A stretch of 64,000 nt of DNA from Escherichia phage phiAPCEc03, in the sequence record NC_047754.1; one strand, written 5' to 3'. A program made the translations under genes and the position numbers. Positions 18,316-28,849 of the stretch are shown piece by piece (within the stretch, counting starts at the first letter, position 1; the number at the start of each line of letters is the position of its first letter). Below the pieces are notes generated by a model. The model ran no database searches, was not told the DNA's origin, and saw nothing but the letters and a program-made list of their open reading frames with translations.

Positions 18316-18930
18316 ATGAGATTACCAGACCCATACACGAATCCAGAACTTTCAGGATTAGGATTCGAAAGTGTTAACCTGATTGATAATGACCCAGTAA
18401 TTCGTGATGAGTTACCAAATGGTAAAGTTAACGAAGTTAAGGTATCTGCTCAATACTGGGGTATAAATATTTCTTATCCAGAATTATTTCCAGATGAATA
18501 TAATGTTCTAGATGCTTTTATTCTAGAATACAAAAGGACTGGTAGTTATATAGATGTTATATTACCCCAATACGAAGCTTTTAGAGTTAGAGGTAATACT
18601 AACTTAGTAAATATACCAGCAGGACAAAAAGGTTCCAATATTACTATGGATACAAAAGGTGTTCTTACCGGTATCCCTAAACCAGGTGATTTATTTAAAT
18701 TATCCAATCACCCAAAAGTTTATAAAATAACATCATTTAATAGATCTGGTAATTCATGGTCTATTAACGTATACCCTGATTTATTTGTAACGACTACTGG
18801 AGCTGAAAAACCAGTATTTAATGGGATACTGTTTAGAACAAAACTCATGAATGGTGATGCTTTCGGATCTACATTAAATAATAACGGAACGTATTCCGGC
18901 ATCTCATTAAATTTACGGGAAAGTTTATGA
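18316..18930 (+). CDS. distal tail protein (T5 pb9-like)
   Basis: 204 aa (same as T5 pb9); directly after tape measure gene. Confidence 0.65.
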   Translation: MRLPDPYTNPELSGLGFESVNLIDNDPVIRDELPNGKVNEVKVSAQYWGINISYPELFPDEYNVLDAFILEYKRTGSYIDVILPQYEAFRVRGNTNLVNIPAGQKGSNITMDTKGVLTGIPKPGDLFKLSNHPKVYKITSFNRSGNSWSINVYPDLFVTTTGAEKPVFNGILFRTKLMNGDAFGSTLNNNGTYSGISLNLRESL

Positions 18931-21776
18931 AAAAAATACTAGATAGTGCTAGAAACTACTTAAAAAATAATAGCAGAATAAAAACTGCTAGTCTAATTTC
19001 CCTAGAATTACCTGGCTCTACTGGTACTAGTACTGCTTTTATTTATTTAACTGATTATTTTAGAGATGTACTATATAATGGTATTTTGTACCAGGCCGGT
19101 AAGGTTAAGTCCATTAGCACACATAAACAAAATAGAGATTTATCTATTGGCAGTCTATCTTTTACTATTACAGGTACAGCGCAGGATGAAGTACTAAAAC
19201 TAGTGCAAAATGGTGTATCCTTCTTAGATAGAACCGTATCAATTCATCAAGCAATTATTACTGAAGATGGTTCTATTCTACCAGTAGACCCCGATACAAA
19301 TGGTCCTTTACTATATTTTAGAGGGAGGATTACTGGAGGGGGTATTAAAGATAACATTAGTACCTCTGGAGTAGGAACCTCTACAATTACCTGGAATTGT
19401 TCTAACCAATTCTATGACTTTGATAGAGTTAATGGTAGATATACTGATGACGCTTCCCATAGGGGGCTTGAAGTTGTAGCTGGACAGTTAGTACCATCTA
19501 ATGGTGCTAAAAGACCAGAGTATCAAGAAGACTACGGCTTCTTCCACTCTAATAAAAGTATCTCTATCCTAGCAAAATATCAGGTTCAAGAAGAAAGATA
19601 CAAGCTAAAATCAAAGAAAAAATTATTTGGTTTATCTAGAAGCTACAGCCTTAAAAAATACTATGAAACTGTCACTAAGGAAGTGGATATAGATTTTAAC
19701 CTTGCTGCTAAATACATACCGGTGGTTTATGGAGTTCAAAAAATTCCTGGAATACCCATTTTTGCTGATACAGAACTACACAATCCCAACATAGTTTATG
19801 TCGTATACGCCTTTGCTGAGGGGGAGATTGATGGTTTTCTTGATTTCTCCTTTGGTGATAACCCTATGATCTGCGTAGATGCTAATGACAGCTCCGCTAG
19901 AACCTGCTTTGGTACTAAAAAAATAGCAGGAGATACAATGCAGAGGATAGCATCTGGAACCTCTTCTAGTAGTCCATCCGTCCATGGTCAAGAGTATAAG
20001 TATAATGATGGAAATGGTGACATAAGGATTTGGACTTATCACGGAAAATCTGATCAAACAGCCTCTGAAGTACTAGTAGATATAGCTAAAGAACGTGGAT
20101 TCTACCTTCAGAATATGAATGGCAATGGGCCGGAGTACTGGGATGCTAGATATAAGCTACTAGATACTGCATACGCAGTGGTGCGCTTCACTATTAATGA
20201 AAATAGGACTGAGATTCCAGAAGTTAGTGCTGAAATTCAAGGTAAAAAAGTAAAAGTCTATCATTCTGATGGTAGAGTAACTGCTAATAGTACTAGTTTA
20301 AATGGTATTTGGCAAACACTTGATTACTTAACCTCTGATAGATATGGCGCTAATATTACCATTGATCAGTTCCCCCTTCAGCAATTAATACAGGAAGCAT
20401 CTATTTTAGATATTATAGATGAATCCTATCAGGTATCTTGGCAGCCATATTGGAGATACGTTGGGTGGACTGATCCACTAGCAGAAAATAGACAAATAGT
20501 ACAAATGAATACTATTCTGGATACATCTGAATCAGTATTTAAAAATGTGCAAGGTTTGTTAGAGTCCTATGGTGGGGCTATTAACAATTTATCTGGCCAG
20601 TATAGGGTTACTGTAGAAAAATACTCTAATACTCCCTTAGAGATTAATTTTCTAGATACTTACGGTGATTTGGAGCTATCAGATACTACTGGTAGAAATA
20701 AATTCAACTCAGTTCAAGCATCTATCGTAGATCCCGCCCTTAGCTGGAAAACTAATTCTATTACATTCTATAATTCCAAGTATAAGGAACAGGACAAGAA
20801 CCTAGATAAAAAATTACAACTATCTTTTGCTAATATTACTAACTACTATACTGCAAGAAGTTTTGCGGATAGAGAACTTAAGAAATCCAGATACTCAAGA
20901 ACACTTTCTTTCTCATTACCATACCAGTTCATAGGGATTGAACCCAATGATGCTATTGCATTCACGTATGACCGTTACGGGTGGAACAGAAAGTATTTCC
21001 TAGTTGATGAGGTTGAAAACTCTAGAGAGGGTAAGATAAATGTTACCTTACAGGAGTATGGAGAGGATGTATTCATCAACTCTGAGCAGGTTGATAATAG
21101 CGGTAATGATATTCCTGATATTAGTAACAATGTCCTTCCTCCTAGAGACTTTAAATATACTCCTACTCCTGGCGGTTTAGTAGGCTCTATAGGTAAAAAT
21201 GGTGAGTTATCCTGGCTTCCGAGTCTAACCAATAATGTAGTTTACTACTCTATTGTGCACTCAGGCCATGCCGAACCTTACATAATACAACAGTTAGAGA
21301 CCAATCCTAACGAACGTATGATCCAAGAAATAATTGGGGAACCAGCAGGTCTGGCTATATTTGAGATAAGGGCAGTAGATATTAATGGTAGAAGAAGTTC
21401 CCCGGTGACTCTGTCTATAGAACTTAACTCTGCTAAAAACCTTAGTGTAGTATCTAATTTTAGGGTAACTAATACGGCCTCTGGGGATGTAACTGAGTTT
21501 GTCGGCCCAGATGTAAAACTAGCTTGGGATAGGATACCGGAAGAAGATATAATAGAGAGTATATTTTATACCCTTGAAATACACGATTCACAAAATAGGA
21601 TGTTAAGAAGTGTACGTATTGAAAATCAGTATACTTATGACTATTTATTAACGTATAATAAGGCAGATTTTGCTCTCCAGAACAGCGGTGCTCTAGGTAT
21701 AAATAGAAAATTGTATTTTCGTATTAGGGCTGAGGGGAATGATGGAGAACAGTCTGTGGAGTGGGCATCCATTTAA
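18927..21776 (+). CDS. baseplate hub protein (T5 pb3-like)
   Basis: 949 aa (same as T5 pb3); canonical position after distal tail protein. Confidence 0.75.
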   Translation: MKKILDSARNYLKNNSRIKTASLISLELPGSTGTSTAFIYLTDYFRDVLYNGILYQAGKVKSISTHKQNRDLSIGSLSFTITGTAQDEVLKLVQNGVSFLDRTVSIHQAIITEDGSILPVDPDTNGPLLYFRGRITGGGIKDNISTSGVGTSTITWNCSNQFYDFDRVNGRYTDDASHRGLEVVAGQLVPSNGAKRPEYQEDYGFFHSNKSISILAKYQVQEERYKLKSKKKLFGLSRSYSLKKYYETVTKEVDIDFNLAAKYIPVVYGVQKIPGIPIFADTELHNPNIVYVVYAFAEGEIDGFLDFSFGDNPMICVDANDSSARTCFGTKKIAGDTMQRIASGTSSSSPSVHGQEYKYNDGNGDIRIWTYHGKSDQTASEVLVDIAKERGFYLQNMNGNGPEYWDARYKLLDTAYAVVRFTINENRTEIPEVSAEIQGKKVKVYHSDGRVTANSTSLNGIWQTLDYLTSDRYGANITIDQFPLQQLIQEASILDIIDESYQVSWQPYWRYVGWTDPLAENRQIVQMNTILDTSESVFKNVQGLLESYGGAINNLSGQYRVTVEKYSNTPLEINFLDTYGDLELSDTTGRNKFNSVQASIVDPALSWKTNSITFYNSKYKEQDKNLDKKLQLSFANITNYYTARSFADRELKKSRYSRTLSFSLPYQFIGIEPNDAIAFTYDRYGWNRKYFLVDEVENSREGKINVTLQEYGEDVFINSEQVDNSGNDIPDISNNVLPPRDFKYTPTPGGLVGSIGKNGELSWLPSLTNNVVYYSIVHSGHAEPYIIQQLETNPNERMIQEIIGEPAGLAIFEIRAVDINGRRSSPVTLSIELNSAKNLSVVSNFRVTNTASGDVTEFVGPDVKLAWDRIPEEDIIESIFYTLEIHDSQNRMLRSVRIENQYTYDYLLTYNKADFALQNSGALGINRKLYFRIRAEGNDGEQSVEWASI

Positions 21777-23833
21777 TGATTTCAAATAATGCACCAGCCA
21801 AAATGGTCTTAAATAGTATAATGACTGGATATACTTTGGCTTATGTCCAGCACTCCATTTATACTGATTATGATGTTATTGGTAGATCTTTTTGGTTAAA
21901 AATAGGAGAAAGTATAGATAGACGTGATTACACCGGTATAGATACTTTCTTCGTAATGATTAATAATCTAACCCCCTCTACCTCCTATGAGATTCAGGGG
22001 GCTTTCTATGACTCAATTATTGACTCAGAGTTACTGGAAGCTAAGATTGGTATCAACCTCTCTAATGAAACTAATTTTAGAACAAAGGAAAAGCCAATAA
22101 TTGTTGCAGCAAGATCTGAATCAGAACCCGTCGACGTTGGTGTTGGTGCTCCAATAGTTGTTGTAGAGACTGCTGGTGAAGCTAGTTACTGCACTATTGA
22201 ATTAAAAAGTACTGCATCAGAAGACAGTGAATGGGTTAAGTATTATATAGGTGCGCTGGGACCTACTATCAAATTTGGTGGTGTTCCTGTTGGAGACTAT
22301 AAGATCAGAATATCTGGTCAAGTTACGATGCCAGATGGTGTTACAGTTGACTCATCTGGCTATTATGAATATCCTAGCGTTTTCACTGTAGCTTATAATT
22401 TCGTACCACCTACTGCACCTACTAACATTGCCTTTAAAACTGCACGAATCGCAGACGGTAAGGAACGATATGATGTTAGAATAGAATGGGACTGGGAACG
22501 TGGTGCTGGTGCTAATGTCCGTGAATTTCTGGTTACTTATATAAACTCTGAAGAATACGCTAAGACTGGTTGGGCTAAAGCTCAAAAGATAAACGTTGGG
22601 GCTGCTAGAGCTGCAACAATTATATCATTCCCATGGAAAGTTGAGCATACTTTTAAGGTATCATCAATTGCCTGGGGACCAAATAAGCAAGATATAACAG
22701 AATCAGCTCCTGTAACATTTATATTGAATGAAGATACTCCTCTAGACAACAGCTTTGTCAATGAGACGGGTATTGATGTTAATTATGCCTTTATTAAGGG
22801 CAGCATGAAAGATGGAGAAATCTGGAGACAGACATTCTTAATCGATGCAGCTACTGGTGCTATTAACATTGGTCTGCTAGATGAAGAAGGAAAAGCACCT
22901 ATTTCTTTTGACCCTATAAACCGTGTTGTTAACGTTGATGGTAAAGTAATTACTAGAGATATTAATGCTGCGAACTTTATCATGACTAACTTATCTGGTA
23001 AGGATAACCCAGCAATTTACACTCAAGGTAAATCTTGGGGGGATAATAACTCCGGTATTTGGATGGGTATGGATAATACCTCTGCCAAAGCTAAGTTAGA
23101 CATTGGTAATGCCACACAGTGGATTCGTTATGATGGTGATGTGCTACGTATTTCTAGTGGAGTAGTTATTGGAACTCCTAATGGCGATGTAGATCTTGGT
23201 ACTGGTATGCAAGGTAAGCAAACAGTATTTGTTTATAAGTTAGCAACATCTCTACCTGCTAAACCACTAGAACAAGATTATCCGCCTCCTGGTTGGTCAA
23301 AAACTCCACCTAACCGTACAGATATGACACAAAATATCTATGCCACTACAGGTACACTTGATCCCGTTACTAACAAACTTCTTGAAGGTACTAGCTGGTC
23401 TGATGTAGTTCAGTGGAGTGGTACTGAGGGTACTATAGGACATGATGGACAACGTGGTCCTGGGATGTACTCCTTAGGTATTCCTGGTCTTGGAGGCTGG
23501 GATGATGGACAAGCTAATGCCTTCTTCCAGAATAACTTTGGTAGTCCTCCTGTTAGATATGATGTATTAACCGAATTTAATAGTAATGCTCCACAATCAG
23601 CATTTACCAGACAATGGAATGGATCTGGGTGGGTGAACCCTGCAATGGTTCTTCATGGGAACATGATTGTTAATGGAACAGTGACGGCAGATAAAATTGT
23701 AGCAGGAAATGCTTTCTTGTCTCAAATTGGTGTTAATATCATTTATGATAGAAATGCTGCGTTATCCTGGAATCCTGAGGCATACTACAAGATGAAGATA
23801 GACCTAAATAGTGGGTATATCCATATAAGGTAA
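21761..23833 (+). CDS. central straight fibre / tail tip protein (T5 pb4-like)
   Basis: 690 aa; 16 nt overlap with hub gene; size close to T5 pb4. Confidence 0.65.
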   Translation: MGIHLMISNNAPAKMVLNSIMTGYTLAYVQHSIYTDYDVIGRSFWLKIGESIDRRDYTGIDTFFVMINNLTPSTSYEIQGAFYDSIIDSELLEAKIGINLSNETNFRTKEKPIIVAARSESEPVDVGVGAPIVVVETAGEASYCTIELKSTASEDSEWVKYYIGALGPTIKFGGVPVGDYKIRISGQVTMPDGVTVDSSGYYEYPSVFTVAYNFVPPTAPTNIAFKTARIADGKERYDVRIEWDWERGAGANVREFLVTYINSEEYAKTGWAKAQKINVGAARAATIISFPWKVEHTFKVSSIAWGPNKQDITESAPVTFILNEDTPLDNSFVNETGIDVNYAFIKGSMKDGEIWRQTFLIDAATGAINIGLLDEEGKAPISFDPINRVVNVDGKVITRDINAANFIMTNLSGKDNPAIYTQGKSWGDNNSGIWMGMDNTSAKAKLDIGNATQWIRYDGDVLRISSGVVIGTPNGDVDLGTGMQGKQTVFVYKLATSLPAKPLEQDYPPPGWSKTPPNRTDMTQNIYATTGTLDPVTNKLLEGTSWSDVVQWSGTEGTIGHDGQRGPGMYSLGIPGLGGWDDGQANAFFQNNFGSPPVRYDVLTEFNSNAPQSAFTRQWNGSGWVNPAMVLHGNMIVNGTVTADKIVAGNAFLSQIGVNIIYDRNAALSWNPEAYYKMKIDLNSGYIHIR

Positions 23834-23839
23834 TAAATA

Positions 23840-24262
23840 ATGAGTACTGAAAATAGAGTTATAGACTTAGTAATAGATGAGAAAGTACCTTATGGTCTAA
23901 TGATGCAATTCTTAGATGTTGATGATAGTACTTATCCCCCTACAAACACCCCTGTTAACTTAACAGGGTATTCTCTAAAGGGTACTATAAAGAATAGCCT
24001 TGATGAGAATGCGGAAACTTTGGCATCTTTTACTACTAAAATTATTGATGCTGCTCAAGGTGCTATAGCTATAAGTTTACCTGTAGAGGCGGTAGATAAT
24101 ATTGGTGAAAAAGCCACCAAAGAGAGAGATAAGTATAACCCTCGCCAACGTTTTGCAGGATACTATGATATAATTATGACACGAGATGTCATAGGATCAG
24201 CTATTAGCTCTTTTCGTATAATGGAGGGTAAAGTATTTATCAGTGATGGGGTAACTAGATAA
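23840..24262 (+). CDS. putative collar protein (T5 p132-like)
   Basis: 140 aa; immediately upstream of lateral tail fibre gene. Confidence 0.45.
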
Positions 24263-26709
24263 TGGCAATAACTACTAAGATTATTGTACAACAAATATTA
24301 AATATTGATGATACTAAAGCTACTGCTAGTAAATTTCCTAGATACACAGTAACTCTTGGAAACTCTATTAGCTCTATTACTGCTATAGAGTTAGTATCCT
24401 CTATAGAGGCCGCTGCTAAATCTGCTGCGGCTGCAAAAGATTCTGAAATAGCTGCTAAAACCTCAGAACTTAATGCTAAGAACTCTGAACAGGAAGCTGC
24501 TATTTCTGCTGGAGCTTCAGAAGCTTCTGCTAATCAGTCTGCTACCTCTGCTACTCAGTCCGCAGCGTCAGCCAATAAGTCTGCAGAATCCGCTGCCGCA
24601 GCTAAAATATCCGAGACTAATGCGAAGACTAGTGAAACTAATGCGAAGACTAGTGAAACTAACGCGAAGACTAGTGAAACTAATGCTGACGCATCAGCTG
24701 CTGCTGCAAAAATTAGTGAGACTAATGCAAAGGCAAGTGAGACTAATGCAGCTCAATCAGCTGCTGATGCAAAACTTAGCGAGGGTAACGCAAAGGTCAG
24801 TGAGACTAATGCAGCTCAATCAGCAGCTGATTCTAGCGGTTTTAGGAATGAGGCGGAAATATTTTCTGGGCAAGCTGCTGCATCGGCATCTGCGGCAAAA
24901 ATCTCTGAAACCAATGCAAAAACCTCGGAAACAAAAGCTAAGGCTAGTGAAACTAATGCTGCGGGATCTGCAACTTCTGCTAGCCAATCTGTAGCTACTA
25001 TTCAAGGACTTAAATCAGATGTCGAACAGTTAAAATCTGATACCCAGGACATTAAAAATAGTGCTATAACAGAGACAACAGCTTTAAAAGCGGATGTCGA
25101 ACAGTTAAAATCTGATACCCAGGCCATTAAAAATAGCGCTATAACAGAGACAACAGCTTTAAAAGCGGATGTTGAGCAACTAAAAACAGATACACAAGGT
25201 ATTAAGGATAGCGCGGTATCTGAGACAACAACTTTAAAAGATCAAGCTGCTGCTTCTGCTGCACAAGCAGGTAATAGTGCTGTTGAGGCCGGGCAACAAG
25301 CTAGCAATGCTGCTGGTAGTGCAAATAGCTCTAAAGTAGAAGCAGACCGTGCAAAGGCAGAAGCAGACCGTGCGGAAGTTGCAGCTAATAGGGATCCTGA
25401 TCTTCAACCATTCCCTGACGTATGGATTCCATTTAATGACTCGCTTGATATGCTCGCAGGTTATTCACCCGGCTATAAGAAAATAACAGTTGGTGAAGAT
25501 GTTATTACAATGCCTTCTGATAAGGTTGTTAGTTTCACGCGTGCGTCAAATGCAACATACATAAATAAGCATGGTGAATTTTGTATTGCTAATATCGATG
25601 AACCCAGATTTGAAAAGCAAGGACTCTTGATTGAAGGCCAGAGGACAAATCACATTACTTTCAGTAATGACCCCGCTTCACTAAATACAGATAAGCACCG
25701 TAGTGATGTTACTTATAATGTTGATAAGTATGGTTTTGCATATGCAACGGCTACAGCTAACGAAAATTCACATGGTGAGTACCCTTCATTATTTTATTGT
25801 AAAACCGTGAATGCAATCAACTGTCAGCAAAATGAATATGTTTCTTTATCTATACGAGTAAAGGCAAACTCGGATATCTATATCACCCCACAATTTTATT
25901 TAGTAGGTAAGGATGGAGGTCTTATTCTCGGTGCTAGATCTTTCATAAGTTGCGAAACCGGCGAAGTTTCTTCTGTAGTAGAAGGGAGGGGGACTATAGC
26001 ACATAGAATATATAGAGAAGACAACGGATGGTTGAAAGTTGAAGCTATGTGTAAATTTGTAGAACGTGGAGGTAGTTCTATTGGATCTGTAAATTATTGT
26101 CGGAATAATGATCAACCTTCGCAAGTTGGGGATACAATATCATTTTGTACTCCGCAATTTGAAAAGGGTTTTTGTGCATCCTCCTTCATTATTACGGGAA
26201 GCACTCCTGCAACAAGGGCTCTGGATTATGTTACTATACCTGCAAGAAATAATTTCTCAGGGACGAATATTTCATTCCTTGCTGAGGTAAGTATCAACTG
26301 GAATAGCTTTCAATTAGATAATATATACCCAATGATAGTGGATAACAACCACTACTTCGTAAGAGGAAAAGCATTTGTTGCGGAATTTGACAGAACCTCC
26401 GTTACACCTTACACGTATGTGGTAACTGAGGATGGATCAACTATTCTGTCCAGAGGTTATTCATTTGAAAAACAATTTTCTCCACATGTATTTGGTTTTA
26501 TTCTCAGTGGCGATGTAGAGGTCACCTCGTTTGTTAATGGTAATAGTGGTGAGACCTCACACGGTTCTACCTGGAAAGGAACGGACTCGGACGCACTAGT
26601 AGAAATAGGCGGTAGACTTTCAGATTCAACTAAATTGTATGGTCATATTCGTAACCTTAGAATATGGAATAGAGTATTAACAGATAGTCAAATGCGGGAG
26701 AAAGTTTAA
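24262..26709 (+). CDS. lateral tail fibre protein A (repeat-rich shaft, C-terminal LamG/concanavalin-like lectin-type domain)
   Basis: 815 aa; N-terminal half made of SETNAK and 25-aa DVEQLKSDTQxIKNSAITETTALKA repeats; C-terminal domain ends ...LYGHIRNLRIWNRVLTDSQMREKV, resembling the characteristic C-terminal strand of LamG-type domains. Confidence 0.7.
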   Translation: MAITTKIIVQQILNIDDTKATASKFPRYTVTLGNSISSITAIELVSSIEAAAKSAAAAKDSEIAAKTSELNAKNSEQEAAISAGASEASANQSATSATQSAASANKSAESAAAAKISETNAKTSETNAKTSETNAKTSETNADASAAAAKISETNAKASETNAAQSAADAKLSEGNAKVSETNAAQSAADSSGFRNEAEIFSGQAAASASAAKISETNAKTSETKAKASETNAAGSATSASQSVATIQGLKSDVEQLKSDTQDIKNSAITETTALKADVEQLKSDTQAIKNSAITETTALKADVEQLKTDTQGIKDSAVSETTTLKDQAAASAAQAGNSAVEAGQQASNAAGSANSSKVEADRAKAEADRAEVAANRDPDLQPFPDVWIPFNDSLDMLAGYSPGYKKITVGEDVITMPSDKVVSFTRASNATYINKHGEFCIANIDEPRFEKQGLLIEGQRTNHITFSNDPASLNTDKHRSDVTYNVDKYGFAYATATANENSHGEYPSLFYCKTVNAINCQQNEYVSLSIRVKANSDIYITPQFYLVGKDGGLILGARSFISCETGEVSSVVEGRGTIAHRIYREDNGWLKVEAMCKFVERGGSSIGSVNYCRNNDQPSQVGDTISFCTPQFEKGFCASSFIITGSTPATRALDYVTIPARNNFSGTNISFLAEVSINWNSFQLDNIYPMIVDNNHYFVRGKAFVAEFDRTSVTPYTYVVTEDGSTILSRGYSFEKQFSPHVFGFILSGDVEVTSFVNGNSGETSHGSTWKGTDSDALVEIGGRLSDSTKLYGHIRNLRIWNRVLTDSQMREKV
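24616..24678 (+). repeat. 21 bp tandem repeat x3 inside fibre gene
   Basis: actaatgcgaagactagtgaa repeated three times (third copy one mismatch), encoding TNAKTSE units. Confidence 0.8.
25018..25242 (+). repeat. 75 bp tandem repeat x3 inside fibre gene
   Basis: Unit starting gatgtcgaacagttaaaatctgatacccagg recurs at 25018, 25093, 25168 with increasing divergence. Confidence 0.8.
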
Positions 26710-26973
26710 GTGAAAGATATTAATTTACAATTCAAGGATGAAAAACATTATCTGGATGTTGTCGTTGATAGTGGGTGGCTTAAGACAAACTACGGTAACG
26801 TGTTTATAGATGAAATTGGTTTTATCCCTGTGGTAGACGACCCTAAAAGTAAAACCCCTGCTATTATTGGTAAAGAAGGTTATTACATAAATATAAGGGT
26901 AGGAGATAATATAGACTTGTCAGACATCGAACAATTCATTATTAAGAATCCCGATGTACGCAAATGGGCATAA
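26710..26973 (+). CDS. hypothetical small protein between the two fibre genes (GTG start)
   Basis: 87 aa ORF starting at GTG directly after the fibre A stop; no recognisable motif. Confidence 0.3.
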   Translation: MKDINLQFKDEKHYLDVVVDSGWLKTNYGNVFIDEIGFIPVVDDPKSKTPAIIGKEGYYINIRVGDNIDLSDIEQFIIKNPDVRKWA

Positions 26974-26983
26974 GAGGTGATCA

Positions 26984-28726
26984 ATGACTACTTATACTAA
27001 TATCCCCCAGGATATTACAAAACTTAAAGACGAAAAGATGGATAAAAACAACAATTTATCCGATCTTGCAGACCGTGCAGCAGCATGGTTAAATGTGCGT
27101 CCTATTGGGTCCACCCCTCTTGCGGGGGATCCTGTTGGGGACTATGATGCCGCAACTAAACGTTGGGTAGAGAATAAGATTAACACCGGTACAGTCGGTC
27201 CCACTATGAATGGTGTTATGAATTACGGTGTTGGTGATTTCCACCTTCGAGATAGTCGTGCGTATATCCAGCCGTACGAGGTGGTTTCTGATGGTCAGCT
27301 TCTTAACAGGGCTGACTGGCCGGAGCTTTGGGCATACGCTCAAAGGGTTGGTGTTATAGAGGATTCGGTATGGTTAGCTTATAAATTCCAGCGTGGAAAA
27401 TACTCTAATGGTGACGGAGCAACAACTTTTCGTGTTCCAGATAAGAATGGGGTGCAGGAGGGATCAATACGTGCTCTTTATGGCCGTGGAGATGGCGGGA
27501 ATAGTGGTGCAAATGGGCAACTGTTCGAATCCGCTGCGCCTAATATTACAGGCTTTTTCACCACATATTCCGCTCAAACTTACGGCCAGGTATTAGGTAT
27601 GACAGGTGGTTCTTTTACCACAAGTAATAAAATATTTCCGGAAGGAAAAGGAGACGGTATACCCCCAGGCACAGCGCCGCTCGCTGGGCGTTATAATACC
27701 TGCGACTTCAATGCCTCAATGTCAAGTCCGATTTACGGGGCATCAACTGATGAGATTCTTACACGAAACTTTGTCGGCGTGTGGGTAATACGGGCGTCCG
27801 GTGGTTTCGTTGCGGCAAATACATCATGGAGTGTAATAAACGCTGATGCTGCCAAACCTCCTACTGGTACAGTTGTAAGGGGTGGTAGTGTGAAGTCAGA
27901 ATACAAGATTGGCACAACTACTACGCATCAAGCATATCTGCAATCTTACGGAAAGATTGATGGATTGACGTCTGAACAAGGTGCAGTTATATCAAACGGG
28001 GTTCAAGAGTGGTCATTTAATCAAGCTGGGACTTTGTACTTCCCAAGCGCAGAAACTCAAATTGGCACGCTAAGGTCTGATGGCGCGCTACAGGTTAACG
28101 CATACGTACGAGCAAAAGACTTCGTTGCACAGCCATTAAACTCTGTTGGAGTTGCCGCTATAGAAAGAAACGCCATCAGAATGATTAACTACGCGAATGT
28201 GTCAGAAGGGTATTATGTAAACACTATAAGCGGCGATTGGTACGATGGAAGCTGGATATTTGGTGGTATTCGCTCCGGTAATAGGTTGTTAGATAGGGTA
28301 CAGCTTAATGTCTATAACGGAATCGGAGGAGCTGCATCTTATATTTTTGGGACGGATGGTATAGCAAAAGGTCAAGAATGGAGAAACTTATCCGACAAAC
28401 GCATTAAAAGTAATATTGAGCGTATAAACGATCCACTATCTAAGATGCGAAACATTAAAGGGGTTAAATGGGTACTAGAAACAAACGGCTCAGTTGGGTA
28501 TGGATTTATTGCTCAGGATGTAGAGAAAGACTTTCCTGAAGCAGTATCTGAAACTCAGTCATCACCTGTTACTCTGCGCGACGGTTCGACGTTGGATAAC
28601 ATAAAATCTGTTAATATGCCAGGTGTAGCAGCTGCACTGCACCACGAGGCGATACTTGCTTTGATGGAAAAGGTGGAGAACCTAGAAGCAGAATTAGCTG
28701 CATTAAAAGAAGCGAATGGTTCCTAA
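26984..28726 (+). CDS. lateral tail fibre protein B (phage tail-collar-type N-terminal domain, C-terminal intramolecular chaperone/peptidase S74 domain)
   Basis: 580 aa; N-terminal region has collar-domain pattern (GQLLNRADWPELWAYAQ...GDGATTFRVPDKNG); C-terminal ~120 aa (LSDKRIKSNIERINDP...GVKWVLETNGSVGYGFIAQDVEKDFPEAV...LEAELAALKEANGS) matches auto-cleaving chaperone domains of fibres and tailspikes; SD AGAGGTG. Confidence 0.7.
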   Translation: MTTYTNIPQDITKLKDEKMDKNNNLSDLADRAAAWLNVRPIGSTPLAGDPVGDYDAATKRWVENKINTGTVGPTMNGVMNYGVGDFHLRDSRAYIQPYEVVSDGQLLNRADWPELWAYAQRVGVIEDSVWLAYKFQRGKYSNGDGATTFRVPDKNGVQEGSIRALYGRGDGGNSGANGQLFESAAPNITGFFTTYSAQTYGQVLGMTGGSFTTSNKIFPEGKGDGIPPGTAPLAGRYNTCDFNASMSSPIYGASTDEILTRNFVGVWVIRASGGFVAANTSWSVINADAAKPPTGTVVRGGSVKSEYKIGTTTTHQAYLQSYGKIDGLTSEQGAVISNGVQEWSFNQAGTLYFPSAETQIGTLRSDGALQVNAYVRAKDFVAQPLNSVGVAAIERNAIRMINYANVSEGYYVNTISGDWYDGSWIFGGIRSGNRLLDRVQLNVYNGIGGAASYIFGTDGIAKGQEWRNLSDKRIKSNIERINDPLSKMRNIKGVKWVLETNGSVGYGFIAQDVEKDFPEAVSETQSSPVTLRDGSTLDNIKSVNMPGVAAALHHEAILALMEKVENLEAELAALKEANGS

Positions 28727-28813
28727 CAAATTTGAGCAAGAATTAATCGAACTGAAAAACTTGTGAACCAGCTCAATAATCCAGATAGATAATTATATAC
28801 GCATAGTAAAAAG

Positions 28814-28844
28814 AAACCCCAGTGGACAAAATCCGCTGGGGTTT
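28814..28844. terminator. bidirectional intrinsic terminator at late/early module boundary
   Basis: Hairpin AAACCCCAG-tggacaaaatccg-CTGGGGTTT flanked by A-run and T-run; lies between convergent gene blocks. Confidence 0.7.
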
Positions 28845-28849
28845 TTATA

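Follow-up and report, generated by a model that had tools for sequence, protein, structure and literature searches.

A probable composite lateral tail fibre of two fibre proteins and a small partner in the T5-like Escherichia phage phiAPCEc03

The window analyzed here, a stretch of 64,000 nucleotides from Escherichia phage phiAPCEc03 (NC_047754.1), carries a Tequintavirus locus for what is probably a T5-like lateral (L-shaped) tail fibre of composite build, in which a pair of fibre proteins combines with a small partner. Downstream of ltfC, the plus strand holds gene A (24262..26709, 815 aa), gene B (26710..26973, 87 aa) and gene C (26984..28726, 580 aa), with the dUTPase block beyond them. 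The initial annotation had placed these ORFs exactly to the base and had read them as a multi-protein lateral tail fibre locus in place of the single pb1 gene of T5, and both points hold. The novelty that it implied does not: two novel proteins in place of the T5 L-shaped fibre were reported in 2012 for AKFV33, whose locus is 91% identical in nucleotide sequence (PMC3326045), and the arrangement was described again for mar004NP2 in 2019 (PMC6563131) and in the BASEL papers of 2021 and 2025 (PMC8594841, PMC11990801). The three-gene arrangement is already known and adds no new biology. AKFV33, FFH1 (about 96% nucleotide identity) and mar004NP2 have the same three genes (ltpA-orf136-ltpB), in the same order and in the same setting of ltfC and dUTPase block. 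The phiAPCEc03 locus differs from the AKFV33/FFH1 type in a patch of the LamG-like domain of gene A (aa 690-780), which is SelmaRatti-like, and in gene B, which starts with GTG and has a one-codon deletion. Two points go beyond the published papers, as judged by sequence comparison: the junction between genes A and C is not homologous to the LtfA/LtfB branch of DT57C, and an A-B-C cassette with a conserved gene C peptide recurs in four phage groups. The A-B pair is also found without gene C.

The ltfC product, a 140-aa collar protein (23840..24262, plus strand), matches the Pfam family LtfC (PF23926, E 3.7e-15) and is 84% identical over 140 aa to LtfC of DT57C, which cryo-EM has revealed as a dodecameric ring holding the lateral fibres (PMC10713586). 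The ltfC-A-B-C transcription unit is closed by a strong stem-loop terminator (28812..28846, plus strand), with a 15-bp stem that includes 7 GC pairs and is followed by a T run; the genes past it lie on the minus strand, in convergent orientation.

Gene A encodes an LtfA/ltpA-type proximal lateral tail fibre of 86.5 kDa (phrog_1419, E 8e-227). Its collar anchor covers aa 1-44 (24262..24393), with similarity extending to about aa 74. DT57C LtfA (PDB 8hqz chain d) matches aa 1-212 with an E value of 8e-34, and BLASTP gave 54% identity between aa 1-191 and LtfA 1-205. The same N-terminus was found by tblastn in 523 phage records, BF23 and pb1-type fibres included. The shaft is an Ala/Ser/Glu coiled coil (24614..25240) in which TRF detected tandem units of 7, 21 and 25 aa, in agreement with the repeat-rich shaft first noted. 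Since the SelmaRatti homologue has 537 aa and lacks aa ~45-320 of gene A, shaft length is variable. The neck (aa 395-478, 25444..25695) is the most conserved segment across all cassettes, with many invariant residues in an alignment of 34 sequences and a conservation of 0.8-0.9 in cassettes with and without gene C.

The gene A head consists of two domains. Domain 1 (aa 479-650, 25696..26211) is a beta-sandwich similar to a domain of the RcGTA head-spike fibre (NCBIfam NF048003, matching aa 456-653, E 3.8e-13). Domain 2 (aa 655-810, 26224..26691) is Laminin_G_3/ConA-like: the LamG-like C-terminal domain originally proposed passes the Pfam cutoff marginally (PF13385, 28.5 bits against 27.6), and the same match is precomputed for many homologues. 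The head has the jelly-roll beta-sandwich typical of ConA-like/Laminin_G_3 domains, with a predicted ConA/CBM40-like fold. In the AlphaFold monomer model of aa 360-815, which is of moderate quality overall (mean pLDDT 60), the neck comes out poorly (pLDDT ~30). Within domain 2, a hypervariable patch at aa ~690-780 (26329..26601) is a candidate ligand-binding surface; its identity is 37-53% to FFH1 and SA126VB, with flanks above 90%, and 90-100% to SelmaRatti. This patch is the reason why the megablast alignment with FFH1 is interrupted. From these identities gene A is read as a recombinant allele, SelmaRatti-like and not FFH1-like at aa 690-780. A Pfam search gave no Peptidase_S74 match in gene A and no SDxRxK motif was seen; the protein lacks an intramolecular chaperone. 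By mass spectrometry, the gene A homologue is present in virions of AKFV33 (ORF137, 95.8 kDa band; PMC3326045) and mar004NP2 (GenBank note; PMC6563131), being the only locus product detected in these two proteomes, which total just 4 and 8 proteins. It is reasonable to regard the gene A head as a candidate glycan-binding head, as it resembles a receptor-binding domain and seems to evolve like one.

Gene B (10 kDa, pI 4.8), the small partner of the lectin head, had been treated as incidental in the initial annotation, yet no other partner of gene A is conserved so consistently. It belongs to phrog_1361, a conserved and uncharacterised family of ~90-aa proteins with an alpha/beta fold, always encoded directly after a lectin-headed fibre and co-varying with its head. 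Mirror-tree/Mantel analysis clearly linked gene B to the A head, in a co-variation for which the adjacency of the genes and their common descent are confounders. Comparison with the known chaperones lambda Tfa, Mu U and T4 gp38 and gp57A gave no similarity in sequence or fold. Gene B is most likely a dedicated assembly partner of the A head, a chaperone that is possibly retained on the fibre.

Gene C encodes the 62.5 kDa precursor of an LtfB/ltpB-type distal fibre (phrog_6921, E 5e-259). It shows 43% identity to DT57C LtfA 508-1066, 56% to LtfB 206-533, 65% to EP335 gp13 over aa 49-577 and 65.6% to IrisVonRoten Gp24 over aa 1-332. Its first 21 residues (26984..27046), MTTYTNIPQDITKLKDEKMDK, form a "plug" peptide with the core TxIPxDIxxLK, which opens gene C in 30 of 30 A-B-C cassettes, even where the remaining part of the protein is unrelated. 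The conserved proximal part (aa 22-300, 27047..27883), which includes a gp12/collar-like region, is 73-100% identical in EC100, T5_ev219, SelmaRatti and SA126VB. The tail-collar-type N-terminus claimed for this protein did not reach significance: the Pfam Collar match (PF07484) at aa 140-155, model positions 39-53, scores 13.7 bits, well below the cutoff (24), and homologues score 13-19 bits. A GDGxTTFxxPD motif is visible in gene C, and the homologous IrisVonRoten Gp24 has been described with a Gp12-like RBD1 (PMC11990801). A sequence search of gene C against the PDB gave no match to the T5 pb1 tip, and the "T5-like RBD2" reported in BASEL was not confirmed from sequence.

In gene C, the receptor-binding part is distal (aa 301-470, 27884..28393) and variable, with 13-30% identity to SelmaRatti, EC100 and T5_ev219 and 70-90% to EP335 gp13, a protein that binds O157 and O26 cells (PMC8217332). 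The target of gene C is probably an O157/O26-type O-antigen, the likeliest being O157. This prediction is extrapolated from 65-80% identity to EP335 gp13, and receptor specificity can shift with few substitutions. The C-terminal intramolecular chaperone noted initially was recovered as a Peptidase_S74 domain (aa 471-580, 12 kDa, 28394..28726 with the stop codon; PF13884 at aa 470-521, 45.6 bits against a cutoff of 22). Cleavage is predicted between Ser470 and Asp471 (codons 28391-28396), where NLS/DKRIKSNIERI of gene C aligns with STS/DERIKSNIERI of EP335 gp13 (Ser621/Asp622), a protein that mass spectrometry has shown to be cut after Ser621 (PMC8217332). The predicted autocleavage products have 50.6 and 12.0 kDa. 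The role in host range suggested for the locus is reasonable, given a ConA/CBM40-like A head with a hypervariable patch and an EP335 gp13-like distal part in gene C.

The locus qualifies as an A-B-C cassette, with a phrog_1361 protein of ~90 aa between a lectin-headed fibre and a fibre starting with TxIPxDIxxLK. Such cassettes are common to Tequintavirus, Seuratvirus, Dhillonvirus and lambdoid prophages. Our survey comprised 30 A-B-C loci and 52 A-B loci without gene C, in which a membrane protein is encoded next instead; loci of the two kinds have identical A and B types in common.

How gene C may attach to the fibre was considered by comparison with DT57C, whose branch junction is the only one to have been studied by experiment and where LtfA aa 223-471, homologous to phiEco32 gp14, is the proposed docking site of LtfB. 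In BLASTP, gene A aligned with LtfA 1-226 only, leaving LtfA 226-508 unmatched, while gene C aligned with LtfB only from residue 206, LtfB aa 1-205 with its ~45-aa phiEco32 gp15-like part being absent. Likewise, gene C aligned with EP335 gp13 only from gp13 residue 205, and its N-terminal plug is unrelated to the LtfB N-terminus. As both docking elements are absent from genes A and C, we rejected the assignment to a DT57C-type branch. A lateral attachment of gene C on the gene A shaft, through an interface like that of LtfB on LtfA (phiEco32 gp15 on gp14), would agree with the conserved LtfC and LtfA anchor, with the presence of gene C in the same PHROG as DT571/2 LtfB and with the literature, in which further two-gene loci of T5-like phages are generally interpreted after DT57C. 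However, it is very improbable in view of the missing elements and of the Seuratvirus cassettes, which keep gene C and lack gene A aa 1-300; the latter exclude docking on the T5-specific shaft. Consequently, of the "branched or dual-specificity" fibre first suggested, dual specificity is reasonable; the geometry may be branched or end-to-end, with a branch of the DT57C type very improbable. Equally improbable is a gene C product outside the lateral fibre, either not incorporated or forming an independent fibre elsewhere on the tail tip. It went undetected in the two low-depth virion proteomes of AKFV33 and mar004NP2, and weak density in DT57C suggested LtfB folding back onto the tail tip (PMC10713586). 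Yet gene C has no tail anchor, is co-transcribed with A and B up to a shared terminator, and has a receptor-binding region that turns over in mosaic fashion, as functional receptor-binding proteins typically do; moreover, plug and gene order are identical despite unrelated tail tips (T5-like, Seuratvirus, Dhillonvirus, lambdoid).

Less easily set aside, though still unlikely, is a serial T4-like fibre with one receptor-binding end, in which the ConA-like domains of gene A and gene B only hold gene C, comparable to gp35/gp36 between the T4 half-fibres. In BASEL a gene C homologue was described as joined to a long proximal fibre (PMC11990801), and in DT57C LtfA, which is continuous, the final repeat of the shaft aligns with the gene C N-terminus. 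The plug shifts with the type of gene B and A head while aa 22-120 stay 97-100% identical, as expected of a co-adapted joint. In the mirror-tree/Mantel analysis the gene C N-terminus also correlated more with gene B (0.51) than with gene A (0.26-0.29), values confounded by adjacency and shared ancestry, in which binding of the plug to B and binding to A are inseparable. Residues conserved only in C-bearing cassettes amounted to one trivial position (807) in gene A and none in gene B. Against a purely serial fibre stand the 52 loci with the same A and B types and no gene C, which argue that the A head is a functional fibre end on its own. In addition, this head, with its hypervariable patch, varies as much as receptor-binding domains do, and its predicted fold is that of a carbohydrate-binding module.

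Returning to the composite fibre with two binding modules, homology shows that LtfC forms the collar and that the first ~44-74 residues of gene A are the standard T5-family anchor, which inserts into it. The rest of gene A would give a trimeric coiled coil, serving as a shaft whose length can be adjusted, then the conserved neck, and at the end a glycan-binding head of two ConA/LamG-like beta-sandwich domains. Gene B, translationally coupled to gene A and apparently co-evolving with the head, would help the head to assemble. Gene C would supply, as a separate polypeptide, what is the distal half in a fibre of the DT57C-LtfA type; it would trimerise via its C-terminal S74 chaperone and, once self-cut after Ser470, leave a mature chain of ~50.6 kDa. 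As gene C has no tail anchor, it must be carried by the A/B part, with its N-terminal TxIPxDIxxLK peptide as the most probable link. The fibre would then offer at least two independently exchangeable glycan-binding modules, A head plus B and the distal part of C, that may bind O-antigen reversibly, so that the phage crosses the O-antigen layer before pb5 engages the outer-membrane receptor.

Parts of this organization are shared with known systems. In DT57C and DT571/2, LtfC is 84% and the LtfA anchor with the first coiled coil 54% identical to their counterparts here, and DT57C LtfA and LtfB share the distal module of gene C (collar-like region, receptor-binding domain and S74). The logic of two receptor-binding proteins per fibre, needed to cross the O-antigen in DT57C, where phage mutants and host panels were used (PMC4728585), would be shared as well. 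Both DT57C fibre proteins end in S74 and no 87-aa gene separates them, whereas in phiAPCEc03 gene B lies between the fibre genes, S74 is limited to gene C and gene A ends lectin-like. By sequence, gene C is a member of the family of T-shaped dual-RBD fibres (IrisVonRoten Gp24, Kuravirus AnnaHegner Gp10, EP335 gp13), with its S74 site at the identical position to EP335 gp13 and IrisVonRoten; however, the kuravirus fibre docks on gp12/gp14-type proximal fibres by an N-terminal extension of ~200 aa, and gene C has a 21-aa plug after an A-B pair. In lambdoid prophages, the Stf N-terminal domain (PF08400) precedes the same A-head/B/C cassette in a fusion, with gene B in the position of tfa, directly 3' of a fibre gene without an intramolecular chaperone. 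Nevertheless, gene B is unlike the Tfa-family chaperones and the A head is ConA-like, not a Stf/gp37-type tip. We found no relevant functional study of LamG-headed Stf-like fibres of lambdoid prophages in the literature. Finally, gene A has one domain in common with the RcGTA head-spike protein, which binds capsular polysaccharide and is a capsid spike, while gene A is a tail fibre.

We tentatively propose that the gene B family and the TxIPxDIxxLK peptide of gene C might constitute a portable, undescribed plug-and-socket junction, with B a structural adaptor retained in the virion and not a transient chaperone. If so, this junction would bolt an S74-type fibre onto a lectin-headed side fibre, would be common to four unrelated siphovirus backbones (T5-like, Seuratvirus, Dhillonvirus and lambdoid prophages), and would allow the added fibre to be gained or lost with the carrier fibre unchanged. 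The role of this ubiquitous ~90-aa protein and the attachment of the add-on fibre should interest specialists to a moderate degree. The O-antigen types that a T5-like phage is able to penetrate are determined by its lateral tail fibres, which are therefore relevant to the typing of phages, to the engineering of host range and to biocontrol of E. coli O157. The practical yield of this analysis is a prediction: gene C would probably recognize an O157/O26-type O-antigen, and the A head with gene B may represent a second module of specificity, which could be swapped independently and has a hypervariable patch of defined position.

The window comes from a T5-like phage (Demerecviridae, Tequintavirus) and covers its late/structural region. 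In a megablast search with positions 23800-28800 the best match was FFH1, with 95% of the query aligned at 96.3% identity; I14, NBEco002, ESCO40 and AKFV33 came next. Downstream of the pb3 (18927-21776) and pb4 (21761-23833) genes lie four ORFs, all on the + strand. The collar gene ltfC (23840-24262) encodes a 140 aa protein that matches Pfam LtfC and is 84% identical to DT57C LtfC. It is followed by the genes of the fibre proteins A (815 aa, 24262-26709) and C (580 aa, 26984-28726), and between them lies gene B (87 aa, 26710-26973), whose GTG start stands right behind the TAA of A and is preceded by a GGGAG Shine-Dalgarno sequence. An ORF check reproduced these ORFs exactly as the initial annotation had given them, and the FFH1 annotation contains counterparts of all four in identical order. 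A strong terminator (28812-28846) closes ltfC-A-B-C, and the genes past it are on the opposite strand. The pb4 gene begins with GTG, shares 16 nt with the end of pb3 and matches all four dedicated Pfam PB4 domains (spike domain E 3e-199). T5-like genomes carry about 22 tRNAs; ARAGORN found no tRNA genes in the 64-kb window, so the tRNA cluster must be located outside it.

The first ~200 residues of A match the cryo-EM-resolved LtfA of DT57C (PDB 8hqz chain d, E 8e-34), and residues 1 to 44-74 correspond to an anchor that 523 T5-like phage records share, among them those with pb1-type single-gene fibres. The shaft is rich in Ala, Ser and Glu, contains tandem repeats of 7, 21 and 25 residues and varies in length, as SelmaRatti lacks about 275 shaft residues. 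Beyond the neck (aa 395-478), which is highly conserved, A has two beta-sandwich domains. Residues 456-653 match NCBIfam GTA_spike_fiber (E 3.8e-13), and a Pfam match of residues 655-810 to Laminin_G_3, barely over threshold, agrees with the LamG-like C-terminal domain initially proposed. The Pfam search found no Peptidase_S74 intramolecular chaperone (S74) in A. Within the head, aa 690-780 (26329-26601) share only 37-53% identity with FFH1 but 90-100% with SelmaRatti, and the flanks exceed 90%; this segment is a recombinant hypervariable patch such as occurs at ligand-binding surfaces. Since the LamG-like patch is SelmaRatti-like and the rest is 96% identical to FFH1, the phage represents a new mosaic of known fibre alleles.

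Protein C falls in a PHROG containing DT571/2 LtfB. It aligns with DT57C LtfB from residue 206 on (56% identity) and with aa 508-1066 of DT57C LtfA, the distal half (43% identity). A weak alignment links its N-terminus to the final shaft repeat of DT57C LtfA, which is continuous, and C thus fits the distal half of an LtfA-type continuous fibre expressed as a separate chain. The tail-collar-type N-terminus assigned to C was a weak call, the Pfam Collar match being sub-threshold here and throughout the C family. C is 65% identical to EP335 gp13 over aa 49-577, with distal windows at 70-90%. Experiments on EP335 gp13 showed binding to O157 and O26 cells and cleavage of its chaperone after Ser621 (PMC8217332). 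Because this site aligns with the bond between Ser470 and Asp471 of C, cleavage is predicted to leave a mature chain of 50.6 kDa and to release a chaperone of 12 kDa.

Protein B is a member of phrog_1361. A profile search placed it in a family of 349 clusters, every one of 88-93 aa and unannotated, and E. coli prophages carry its homologues very frequently. An alignment of 30 sequences has eleven invariant residues. The predicted model is a confident (pLDDT 83.5) small alpha/beta fold for which structural searches returned generic or uncharacterised matches only. All close homologues have 88 aa, one codon more than the GTG-initiated B of the window, which lacks an Ile at '...YYINIR-VGDN...'.

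The branched-fibre concept originated with DT57C and DT571/2 (PMC4728585, PMC10713586). The DT57C branch is thought to join LtfA aa 223-471, a phiEco32 gp14 homologue, to the gp15-like N-terminus of LtfB, and both proteins end in an S74 domain (PMC4728585). The window locus shares LtfC and the LtfA anchor with DT57C. However, A lacks LtfA 226-508 and C lacks LtfB 1-205, S74 is present in both DT57C fibre proteins but not in A, and an extra gene, B, separates the two fibre genes. A DT57C-type branch was rejected as the class of the locus on account of these differences at the junction, and the locus should not be filed as such, although it may work similarly despite the different junction. The initial idea of a two-gene locus, branched or of dual specificity, in place of the single long T5 fibre gene is reasonable and only partly supported: the branching is putative, the junction is unlike the one example characterised so far, and the collar assignment of C is weak.

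Windowed identities between cassettes divide the A-B-C gene set, or cassette, into four modules. Residues 1-330 of A occur in T5-like phages only, aa ~300-480 are conserved in all cassettes and aa 480-815 are highly variable (17-35% identical between cassette types), with B changing alongside; in C, aa 22-300 are conserved (73-100%) and aa 300-470 variable. Across phage groups the A-head/B/C cassette is joined to differing tail-attachment N-termini: it was found in Seuratvirus (SA126VB, BRET, phiG7, Dru_SM1 and VogelGryff), in Dhillonvirus (KarlBarth) and, with the Stf domain PF08400 as its N-terminus, in lambdoid phages and prophages. Gene C was present in 30 of 99 surveyed loci containing a B homologue (10 were truncated too early for a call), and all 30 C proteins start with M-x-x-x-T-x-IP-x-DI-x-x-LK, even where the remainder of C is unrelated. 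In 52 loci A-B is followed by a 97-aa membrane protein, without C, and seven more have no C at all. Identical A and B types were found both with and without C, and no residues of A or B were specifically conserved in the C-bearing cassettes surveyed. Among 26 non-redundant cassettes, the distance matrix of B correlated strongly with those of the A neck and head (rho 0.64-0.76), while that of the first ~21 residues of C, the plug, correlated moderately with B (0.51) and weakly with A (0.26-0.29), figures that are suggestive only because gene adjacency and relatedness confound them.

Lambdoid prophages with A-B and no third fibre gene carry after B a conserved ~97-aa hydrophobic protein (MDISPLLHALCAVAAQ...), mostly at the prophage end (L004 7477-7764, L022 2464-2748 and about 50 IMG/VR prophage loci, L044-L098). 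The B homologues of a third group share 55-56% identity with the window B and lie at contig or prophage ends behind a ~604-aa A protein (L028-L040, on IMG/VR contigs 40-57 kb long); they have no gene C behind them, even where the flank reaches 4 kb. C seems truncated or split in some cassettes: Dru_SM1 (L010 5390-6600) has a 30-aa ORF ahead of a C protein without plug, and in an E. coli genome (L018 5292-6333) C falls into two pieces of 90 aa and 254 aa, which suggests decay or sequencing frameshifts. T5-like tail fibre sequence, with the C plug at 77% identity, also appears in records labelled as Listeria or Campylobacter phages (OR848352, Listeria phage LM 4-14-1, 7.5 kb; OR844773; MG065667, Campylobacter phage A127), which are probably short or mis-assigned contigs.

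The two-fibre-protein arrangement is already known from close relatives. Niu et al. described it in AKFV33, where mass spectrometry of virions detected the A homologue (PMC3326045). Michniewski et al. (2019) reported that mar004NP2 has only an ltfB orthologue and two upstream genes, one of which 'likely' builds the fibre together with it, and mass spectrometry again confirmed the A homologue (PMC6563131). According to BASEL, a Markadamsvirinae fibre is either a single large polypeptide or built from two or more proteins (PMC8594841). IrisVonRoten Gp24, a C homologue, is predicted to form a T-shaped fibre with two receptor-binding domains joined to a long proximal fibre (PMC11990801).

In the best-supported reading, A would be anchored in the LtfC collar, form the shaft and end in a lectin-like, glycan-binding head. 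B would be a dedicated partner of this head, presumably a chaperone, because A lacks an intramolecular one, translation of B is coupled to that of A, B and the head co-evolve, and B stays with A where C is absent. C would be a facultative add-on fibre, docking via its plug somewhere on the distal A/B part. It would contribute a second receptor-binding region whose specificity is probably O157/O26; should the T-shaped prediction be right, there may also be a third. In the main rival reading the fibre would be serial and T4-like, with the A head and B serving only as a knee; two things weaken this reading, namely that A-B cassettes lacking C are abundant and that the A head varies in the manner of a receptor-binding domain. 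The residual interest of the locus resides in the uncharacterised 90-aa family of B and the conserved plug of C, which together may constitute a portable junction through which a second fibre can be added.
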